Assembly: GCA_050124795.1 (NCBI GenBank)
Contig: JASFEO010000003.1
Coordinates: forward strand, 1-64,000
Direction: 5' to 3'
DNA: 64,000 nt
DNA from: Candidatus Pacearchaeota archaeon
GTDB taxonomy: Archaea > Nanobdellota > Nanobdellia > Pacearchaeales > GW2011-AR1
Shown: positions 110 through 862 of the stretch, piece after piece
Layout of the letters: each line of letters begins with the position of its first letter
Position numbering within the stretch: position 1 is the stretch's first letter
Made by a program: the position numbers and the translations under genes
Notes under the pieces: model-generated
The model's input: the letters and a program-made list of their open reading frames with translations, nothing else
The model's database searches: none
What the model was told of the DNA's origin: nothing

Positions 110-202
110 ACATAACATTAGGTTAAGCGAAGTTTTCCGACGGAGGAGGAAAATTTGGGAGAGCCCCGAGCCGAGGGGCGAACCGCTTAACTTATGTTTC
201 AC
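110..202 (-). mobile_element. attC-like recombination site (copy 1)
   Basis: Minus strand reads GTGAAAC-ATAA-GTTAAGCG...CGCTTAAC-CTAAT-GTTATGT; imperfect 93-bp palindrome with two internal hairpins; the tandem repeat boundary falls at the AAC/GTT triplet. Confidence 0.75.
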
Positions 203-862
203 GACCCGACGACGAAGGAGGAGAGCGCAGCGTGGCACGAGCGGAGCAGCTTCAAATATTGCGACCTCGTGAGTTGGAATTTGCCCCCGACCGATTTCTT
301 AGCGTAGTTGTCGTCATAAACTTTTTTACATAACCCATTTTTCCCGACGACAATTTCGTTTAATCAGCGTGTTATGCGATGTTTTTATTTCACATTGGAG
401 CGTTAAACGAAGCAAGGAATCTGCAAGGTCGGGGGTTTATCGACGGTGATTTCAGTGTTTACTGCCGACAAATTTCAATTTTGAGAAACATTAGGTTAAG
501 CGAAGTTTTCCGACGGAGGAGGAAAATTTGGGAGAGCCCCGAGCCGAGGGGCGAACCGCTTAACTTATGTTTCACGACCCGACGACGAAGGAGGAGAGCG
601 CAGCGTGGCACGAGCGGAGCAGCTTCAAATATTGCGACCTCGTGAGTTGGAATTTGCCCCCGACCGATTTCTTAGCGTAGTTGTCGTCATAAACTTTTTT
701 ACATAACCCATTTTTCCCGACGACAATTTCGTTTAATCAGCGTGTTATGCGATGTTTTTATTTCACATTGGAGCGTTAAACGAAGCAAGGAATCTGCAAG
801 GTCGGGGGTTTATCGACGGTGATTTCAGTGTTTACTGCCGACAAATTTCAATTTTGAGAAAC
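114..862. repeat. Exact tandem duplication of a 373-bp unit (114-486, 487-859) bounded by AAC triplets at 114, 487 and 860; putative non-coding gene cassettes
   Basis: Direct comparison of the two copies; more GC-rich than the flanks; no convincing ORF. Confidence 0.95.
483..575 (-). mobile_element. attC-like recombination site (copy 2)
   Basis: Same as copy 1 but R' is GTTTCTC, which is 6/7 complementary to R'' GTGAAAC. Confidence 0.75.

Follow-up and report, generated by a model that had tools for sequence, protein, structure and literature searches.

A probable integron-like cassette platform with folded, non-canonical sites and an insertion-less XerA paralogue in a Pacearchaeota genome

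Introduction

At the start of a contig from a Candidatus Pacearchaeota archaeon, two attC-like elements precede a gene for a tyrosine recombinase. This locus raises the question whether cassettes are collected here on folded sites, as in integrons, and by which kind of enzyme. According to the part of PMC5027507 available to us, canonical attC sites have their extrahelical bases close to L'', in the arm that faces the one with the AAC triplet, and have a bottom strand enriched in G:T pairs and purines. The I2 domain of integron integrases, 20 residues long, accommodates these bases (PMC4792948, accessible sections), and the additional domain is present in the six archaeal IntIs described in the consulted sections of Ghaly et al., 2022 (PMC9668308). 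The original prediction for the locus had claimed attC-like sites that lack an extrahelical base in the L box and end in a branched structure, and had related the lost bulge to an insertion missing from the enzyme. The window, i.e. the whole stretch of DNA that was analyzed, comprises the first 64 kb of contig C3; the genome amounts to 1.06 Mb in 38 contigs, with roughly 31% G+C.

Results

The window contains one duplicated cassette

The features of the locus are listed in Table 1. Positions 114-862 form a perfect tandem repeat with a period of 373 bp (2.0 copies, 100% identity), which has a G+C content of 0.47-0.53 compared to about 0.23-0.35 in the flanks. The two sites of the window are identical because both sit inside this repeat; they count as one duplicated cassette instead of two examples. 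The boxes, spacers and hairpins that had been described for the site were all found in place: in copy 1 the inner 8-nt boxes (122-129 and 183-190) are perfect complements, the spacers are 5 nt (117-121) and 4 nt (191-194) long, and the hairpin arms pair 130-138 with 148-156 and 163-167 with 175-179. Folding of both strands, one of the checks proposed beforehand, predicted a three-way junction on either strand, with the + strand being more stable as DNA (-16.5 kcal/mol, z -3.04, versus -14.3 kcal/mol, z -2.14, for the - strand) and as RNA (-34.2 versus -27.2 kcal/mol).

Comparison of the window with Rfam 15 at the gathering score gave a tRNA at 46379-46449 as sole match and none for the site, and a search of positions 1-1000 up to E 10 yielded nothing better than E 4.7. 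A weak match to the covariance model R1 (see below) is located within the cassette at 326-381 (E 4.6); it contains a 7-mer ending in AAC and a near-complementary 7-mer starting with GTT, with 36 nt between them, and may be a decayed mini-site.

Table 1. Features at the start of the window, with the observations on which each is based.
Feature	Position	Strand	Basis or remarks
End of neighbouring cassette	1-113	+	On three contigs, three different sites come after it
Folded site, copy 1	108-206	+	Model R1 78.5 bits, E 3e-19; DNA and RNA folds
Crossover AAC, copy 1	114-116
Outer stem, copy 1	114-129 with 183-199
3' GTT, copy 1	197-199
Tip hairpin P2, copy 1	130-156
Tip hairpin P3, copy 1	163-179
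Cassette, copy 1	114-486	+	Site plus 283 nt of G+C-rich DNA, without convincing reading frame
Conserved non-coding block	351-484, again 724-857	+	Parts 88-92% identical in other genera
Folded site, copy 2	481-579	+	Model R1 72.7 bits; identical to copy 1 from AAC (487) on
Cassette, copy 2, nearest the recombinase	487-859	+	Tandem-repeat period, array-end layout
Junction and putative docking region	860-921	+	Same layout in 7/7 arrays
Tyrosine recombinase, 260 aa, XerA-like	922-1704	+	Complete tyrosine recombinase domain, profile and structure matches

The sites belong to a covarying family in co-oriented arrays

Similar elements on other contigs were first found by motif search, and an alignment of eight sites was used to build the covariance model R1. 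Because MAFFT aligned the variable hairpins poorly, we used model-based alignments, which lean towards the structure of the model. The eight sites share 35 consensus pairs, 16 of which show compensatory changes on both sides. Invariant in all eight are the 5' AAC followed by AT, the 3' GTT, the base of P2 including a G.T pair, and a short purine linker.

In the genome, R1 found 25 matches, which have one orientation per contig and are spaced 0.1-2.7 kb apart. Six of them lie upstream of a second tyrosine recombinase gene on contig C5 and two upstream of the gene at 922-1704; the remaining sites are on small contigs that start or end inside an element. Groups of at least two co-oriented sites less than 4 kb apart, the arrangement expected for an integron, are present here and likewise in relatives. 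Altogether, 43 of 100 related genomes have matches, including 33 of 60 from the same family, and six of the eight other families sampled have members with sites; absence from an incomplete genome proves nothing. Among 46 matches of relatives (nine loci), 89.7% of the cells were paired, compared to 71.1% after shuffling and 33-53% in slid controls. In the alignment of these matches, which was fitted to R1 so that the structure is favoured, 29 of the 35 pairs were changed on both sides, and none of 500 shuffles reached this number. The G.T pair of P2 was kept in 40 of 44 matches. As the relatives are kin, these counts overstate independence.

Covariation among homologous sites, a further check that had been proposed, was thus found in the outer and inner stems and in the tip helices, and judged by these stems and by AAC...GTT the sites are attC-like. 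There is free variation in the arm sequences as long as the three helices stay paired, a pattern in line with recognition of the structure. When the strands of 61 distinct sites (20 of this genome and 41 of relatives, one of these an antisense duplicate) were compared, the + strand was the more stable one in 59, with small strand differences of 0.1-5.8 kcal/mol. Since the + strand carries the crossover AAC, folds better and codes for the recombinase, it corresponds to the bottom strand of integron geometry, as had been proposed.

In two sites, L010:11021-11110 and L012:2949-3038, a stretch of 90 nt comprising the 5' arm and P2 is 100% identical and is followed by a different P3 and 3' arm. These sites are chimeric, and a crossover at AAC does not explain them.

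The unpaired bases lie beside the crossover triplet

Unpaired bases were predicted on the AAC arm of 52 of the 61 distinct sites, mostly as a bulge of 2-3 nt directly after AACA (TC in 27, TAT in 8 and TT in 4 sites). Only 21 have any unpaired base on the opposite arm; in 27 the TC bulge is the only unpaired feature, and in most the inner stem of 10-12 bp is unbroken. The copy in the window is a reduced variant, with 2 nt opposite 1 nt at the position of the bulge. The canonical arrangement, extrahelical bases near L'' on the arm opposite AAC, is not that of these 61 sites.

The original prediction of an L box without an extrahelical base holds for the inner stem of most sites, but the family does keep an asymmetry, the AAC-arm bulge beside the crossover. 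The branched terminal structure was confirmed as a three-way junction conserved across the family. As far as the predicted folds go, the bulge sits on the arm that canonical integrases disfavour. The missing L-box bulge may reasonably be taken to match the missing I2 insertion of the enzyme, and the mode of recognition may be ancestral, as had been suggested.

The sites behave as cassette boundaries with a crossover at the 5' AAC

Four different sequences precede the start of the 373-nt unit (C3:1-113, the unit itself and the ends of C23 and C30), and in each case identity sets in precisely at the AAC. Downstream of C3:1-118 the sequence continues into a different element on each of the contigs C3, C29 and C31, the divergence starting just after AACAT. 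Contigs of one public run generated with another assembler served as an independent check. There, the unit is a separate piece of 376 nt reaching from AAC (114) to AAC (489), and more left and right contexts appear as loose contig ends at 111, 118, 487 and 492. The depth was 310.8 for this piece, 142.9 for the self-junction piece (463-516) and 37.1 for the recombinase contig; because metagenome depth sums over organisms, we read these values only as two copies being a floor and contexts being many. The depth of the unit suggests many copies in tandem, further contexts or free circles, between which contigs cannot distinguish.

The four variable bases that follow the 3' GTT of a site were compared to the four that precede the next site's AAC, and 55 of the 68 positions in 17 consecutive pairs are complementary; shuffled partners gave 29.0 (sd 4.2), with 0 of 100000 shuffles reaching 55, and the site's own upstream bases are complementary at 37 of 68 positions. 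For the relatives, 42 of the 46 matches were used (E <0.001) and pairs with a site failing the position check were dropped; complementarity was found at 74 of 116 positions (29 pairs) compared to 49.1 (sd 4.9), a value reached by 1 of 100000 shuffles. In two densely detected arrays of the relative G058 all eight pairs were complementary at 4/4 positions. Such complementarity to the next site is predicted by the insertion of circular cassettes with an exchange inside the outer box. As proof of the crossover position it was dropped, because it fits either triplet; the crossover was placed at the 5' AAC because of the breakpoints, the AAC-bounded piece of the public run and the 7-mers at the array ends (see below). 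Each cassette would then carry both halves of its own outer box, as in integrons. The breakpoints at AAC, the complementary flanks and the orphan 7-mers argue for the attC-like role that the sites had been given, that of cassette boundaries.

Palindromic repeats of the MITE or REP type that a transposase disperses would be short, structured, multi-copy and intergenic as well, and one array contains an rve-type transposase gene. The sites are, however, strictly co-oriented and clustered in arrays, their flanking bases are complementary instead of directly repeated, and their synteny with a recombinase gene is conserved, which makes such an origin extremely unlikely.

The arrays end next to the recombinase gene

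The arrays are located on the 5' side of the recombinase gene with the junction next to the gene, and from this layout the intervening region is a putative docking (attI-like) site. In the window, the 7-mer of the last cassette (856-862) complements the 3' 7-mer of the site at 6/7 positions, and beyond the junction lies unique DNA that includes a short inverted repeat and a promoter-like stretch rich in A+T. Seven arrays were compared, two in this genome and five in four relatives. In each of them, an orphan 7-mer with AAC at its end precedes the start of the recombinase gene by about 60-170 nt; it is complementary to the 3' 7-mer of the last site at 7/7 positions in four arrays and at 6/7 in three. 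The sequence beyond the orphan 7-mer is unique and frequently contains a short inverted repeat.

Both tyrosine recombinase genes of this genome have an array upstream on the same strand. The same applies to 13 of 13 recombinase genes of relatives that have a site within 5 kb on their contig; these belong to 12 genomes from five families among the 100 relatives and, being kin, do not represent 13 independent trials. Many other recombinase genes of relatives are located at contig starts, and some arrays have no recombinase nearby, for example the one at 88-95 kb in G002.

Several docking regions (863-921 of the window, L037, L040, L041 and L042) have an inverted repeat right after the AAC, which resembles a reduced site that lacks the 3' GTT. 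In G036 and in one array of G058 (C18) the docking loop starts with the conserved motif of the P2 base.

The elements might also be structured RNAs (terminators, processing signals or regulatory RNAs) that are clustered only secondarily. Their conserved three-way junction, invariant G.U pair and conserved purine linker would suit an RNA, and the z-scores are stronger for RNA (-3.56). Yet Rfam contains no match and ORFs lie on either strand relative to the element. An RNA function does not predict the AAC breakpoints, the complementary 7-mers and the fixed place upstream of a recombinase gene, and we consider it very unlikely.

The recombinase is XerA-like and lacks the IntI insertion

The best NCBIfam model for the 260-aa recombinase was archaeal XerA (XerA_Arch, NF040815) with 200.8 bits, below the cut-off of 220; the integron-integrase model TIGR02249 reached 177.5 bits in two stretches, compared to a cut-off of 265. 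Pyrococcus XerA (4a8e) was the best PDB match and aligned from end to end with 137.8 bits. VchIntIA (2a3v) aligned in two blocks, with residues 164-184 of the query opposite residues 177-242 of the chain, showing that about 45 residues around the IntI-specific region are absent, in agreement with the predicted lack of the insertion. The IntI-specific additional domain (I2) near patch III is missing from the window enzyme. Eleven other recombinases from this genome and its relatives (268-284 aa) also scored best as XerA and below the IntI cut-off; with NF040815, ten of them reached 229-261 and one 211 (cut-off 220). The sources label close homologues as Pacearchaeota, Woesearchaeota or Nanoarchaeota.

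The genome (90% completeness) yielded only two tyrosine recombinase genes, each located downstream of an array. In a tree of 12 proteins, a small sample with a midpoint root only, the four copies without a nearby array form one clade (support 100/99), and seven array-linked copies and one contig-end copy are placed outside of it. No member of this non-array XerA clade of the relatives was found in this genome at its 90% completeness. G002 has a single recombinase copy, too.

Cassettes could alternatively exploit the housekeeping XerA at double-stranded sites of the Xer/dif type, with the hairpin potential serving another purpose. All recombinases score best as archaeal XerA, many of them above the cut-off, G002 and this genome show no separate housekeeping-type copy, and AACAT is invariant, as an overlap region would be. 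Arms that vary freely while three helices stay paired fit recognition of a structure, and in multi-copy genomes four non-array XerA proteins form a well-supported clade that does not include the array-linked enzymes; we consider recombination of duplex sites unlikely.

Another possibility is that the sites are ordinary attC sites served in trans by a canonical IntI, whose gene would lie in other cells or in the 10% of the genome missing from the assembly. Clusters of attC without an integrase are common, and in Data S1 of PMC9668308, in the part available, a few genomes of Pacearchaeales and Woesearchaeales appear with 2-4 attC sites but without IntI. This is highly improbable here, given that the only two tyrosine recombinase genes found both lack the insertion, that a XerA-like gene is linked in 13/13 cases and that the bulge is on the arm which canonical enzymes disfavour according to the accessible text of PMC5027507. 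The linked XerA paralogue is the more probable partner of the sites.

The cassettes carry accessory genes and a conserved non-coding block

A Pfam scan of 27 ORFs (26 between sites and one beside the C5 recombinase) gave matches for 17, and 10 were without family. Four NYN domains were found along with an M28 peptidase, an rve transposase, ArsR, a 4Fe-4S protein, a deacetylase, a hexapeptide acetyltransferase, an ATLF-family protein, a methylase-specificity fusion, ASCH, a methyltransferase, a 2'-5' RNA ligase and DUF2127. According to these domain assignments, the cargo is a typical accessory mix. The orientation of the ORFs is mixed: crude calls gave 30 ORFs, 18 on the strand of the site and 12 on the opposite one, so that these calls do not show the prevailing orientation that goes with expression from a platform promoter in integrons.

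The ATLF match (E 5e-21) belongs to a 198-aa cassette ORF on C29 (L011:1478-2074). The rve-type transposase gene (L009:4973-5824, C5:26972-27823) lies inside the C5 array in an interval of 2.5 kb, which it shares with genes of the M28 peptidase and NYN families.

The cargo of the duplicated cassette (204-486 and 577-859) is G+C-rich. Parts of it (221-316, 351-421 and 351-484) are 88-92% identical in 10 of the 100 relatives, whereas the recombinases are only about 45% identical. The conserved block is found in the cassette nearest the recombinase in at least five arrays (the window, two in G058, G011 and G027), and a small hairpin inside it shows compensatory changes in two genomes. The block could be an element of the platform, a small RNA or a selfish cassette.

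Discussion

Taken together, we consider it likely that the locus represents an integron-like cassette platform, in which structure-specific, non-canonical sites are combined with an insertion-less XerA paralogue; this assignment is drawn from comparative sequence analysis. A cassette would consist of a site and the following DNA up to the AA of the next AAC, and strand exchange at the 5' AAC of the + strand would excise or insert it. The enzyme acting here is most likely the XerA paralogue whose gene lies directly downstream, with a docking site between the array and this gene, and a folded single strand is its most likely substrate. Positions 114-862 of the window would correspond to one ORF-less cassette that is present at least twice. 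We infer the acting enzyme, the single-stranded state at recombination and the role of the tip hairpins from these comparisons. A point against such a platform is that the enzyme lacks the insertion which integron integrases need for extrahelical bases, as described in the available part of PMC4792948.

The arrays share several features with integrons, including the archaeal ones as far as described in the sections of PMC9668308 at hand: co-oriented imperfect palindromes, an AAC crossover and cassettes with both halves of their own outer box. Further common features are the docking site beside the recombinase gene, the location of this gene on the best-folding strand, the G.T pairs favouring that strand, and the accessory and unknown cargo. 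In contrast to integrons, the recombinase has no IntI-specific insertion and the ORFs point both ways. The unpaired bases are on the AAC arm here and canonically on the opposite arm near L'', and the tip is a conserved three-way junction with an invariant linker, whereas the canonical terminal structure is variable.

With Xer/dif dimer resolution and archaeal XerA (PDB 4a8e, 5hxy) the enzyme shares the protein family. But dif is a single duplex site, whereas many variable, structured sites bound cargo in the arrays described here, and in multi-copy genomes the array-linked copies are paralogues outside the non-array XerA clade. In CTX phage, a folded single-stranded attP is recombined by XerCD. 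Elements that exploit Xer in this way would share two features with the arrays, a folded and branched single strand as the substrate of an insertion-less Xer-type enzyme and the possibility that insertions pile up at one site. They differ, since the cassettes are non-replicative and without phage genes, and since the recombinase gene is a dedicated neighbour.

In our literature search, archaeal integrons were found only in canonical form and no platform run by XerA was found in print. The term XerA is absent from the main text of PMC9668308, and the conserved linker motif is absent in both orientations from its spreadsheet supplement, in whose available part only nine attC sequences are given. 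A XerA-linked cassette system is not described in the sections of Smyshlyaev et al., 2021 (PMC8138268) that were available. We regard the platform as a variant of the known integron plan. Judging from the accessible parts of PMC9668308, some members of the folded-site family may be among the sites of Ghaly et al. Since 43 of 100 relatives have sites, compared to few published genomes with 2-4 sites each, standard attC screens probably under-detect the family.

Beyond this genome, we give an even chance to a platform that is widespread in DPANN archaea of this order and defined by XerA paralogues without I2, a bulge beside the crossover triplet and a three-way-junction tip, being either an independent invention of cassette capture or an extant relative of the Xer-like stage that gave rise to integron integrases. 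If true, this would be a second solution for a cassette system on folded sites, with the asymmetry on the other arm and without I2, and the origin of integrons would become testable at the bench. The platform would also explain assembly breaks at array loci and a sizeable variable fraction of very small archaeal genomes.
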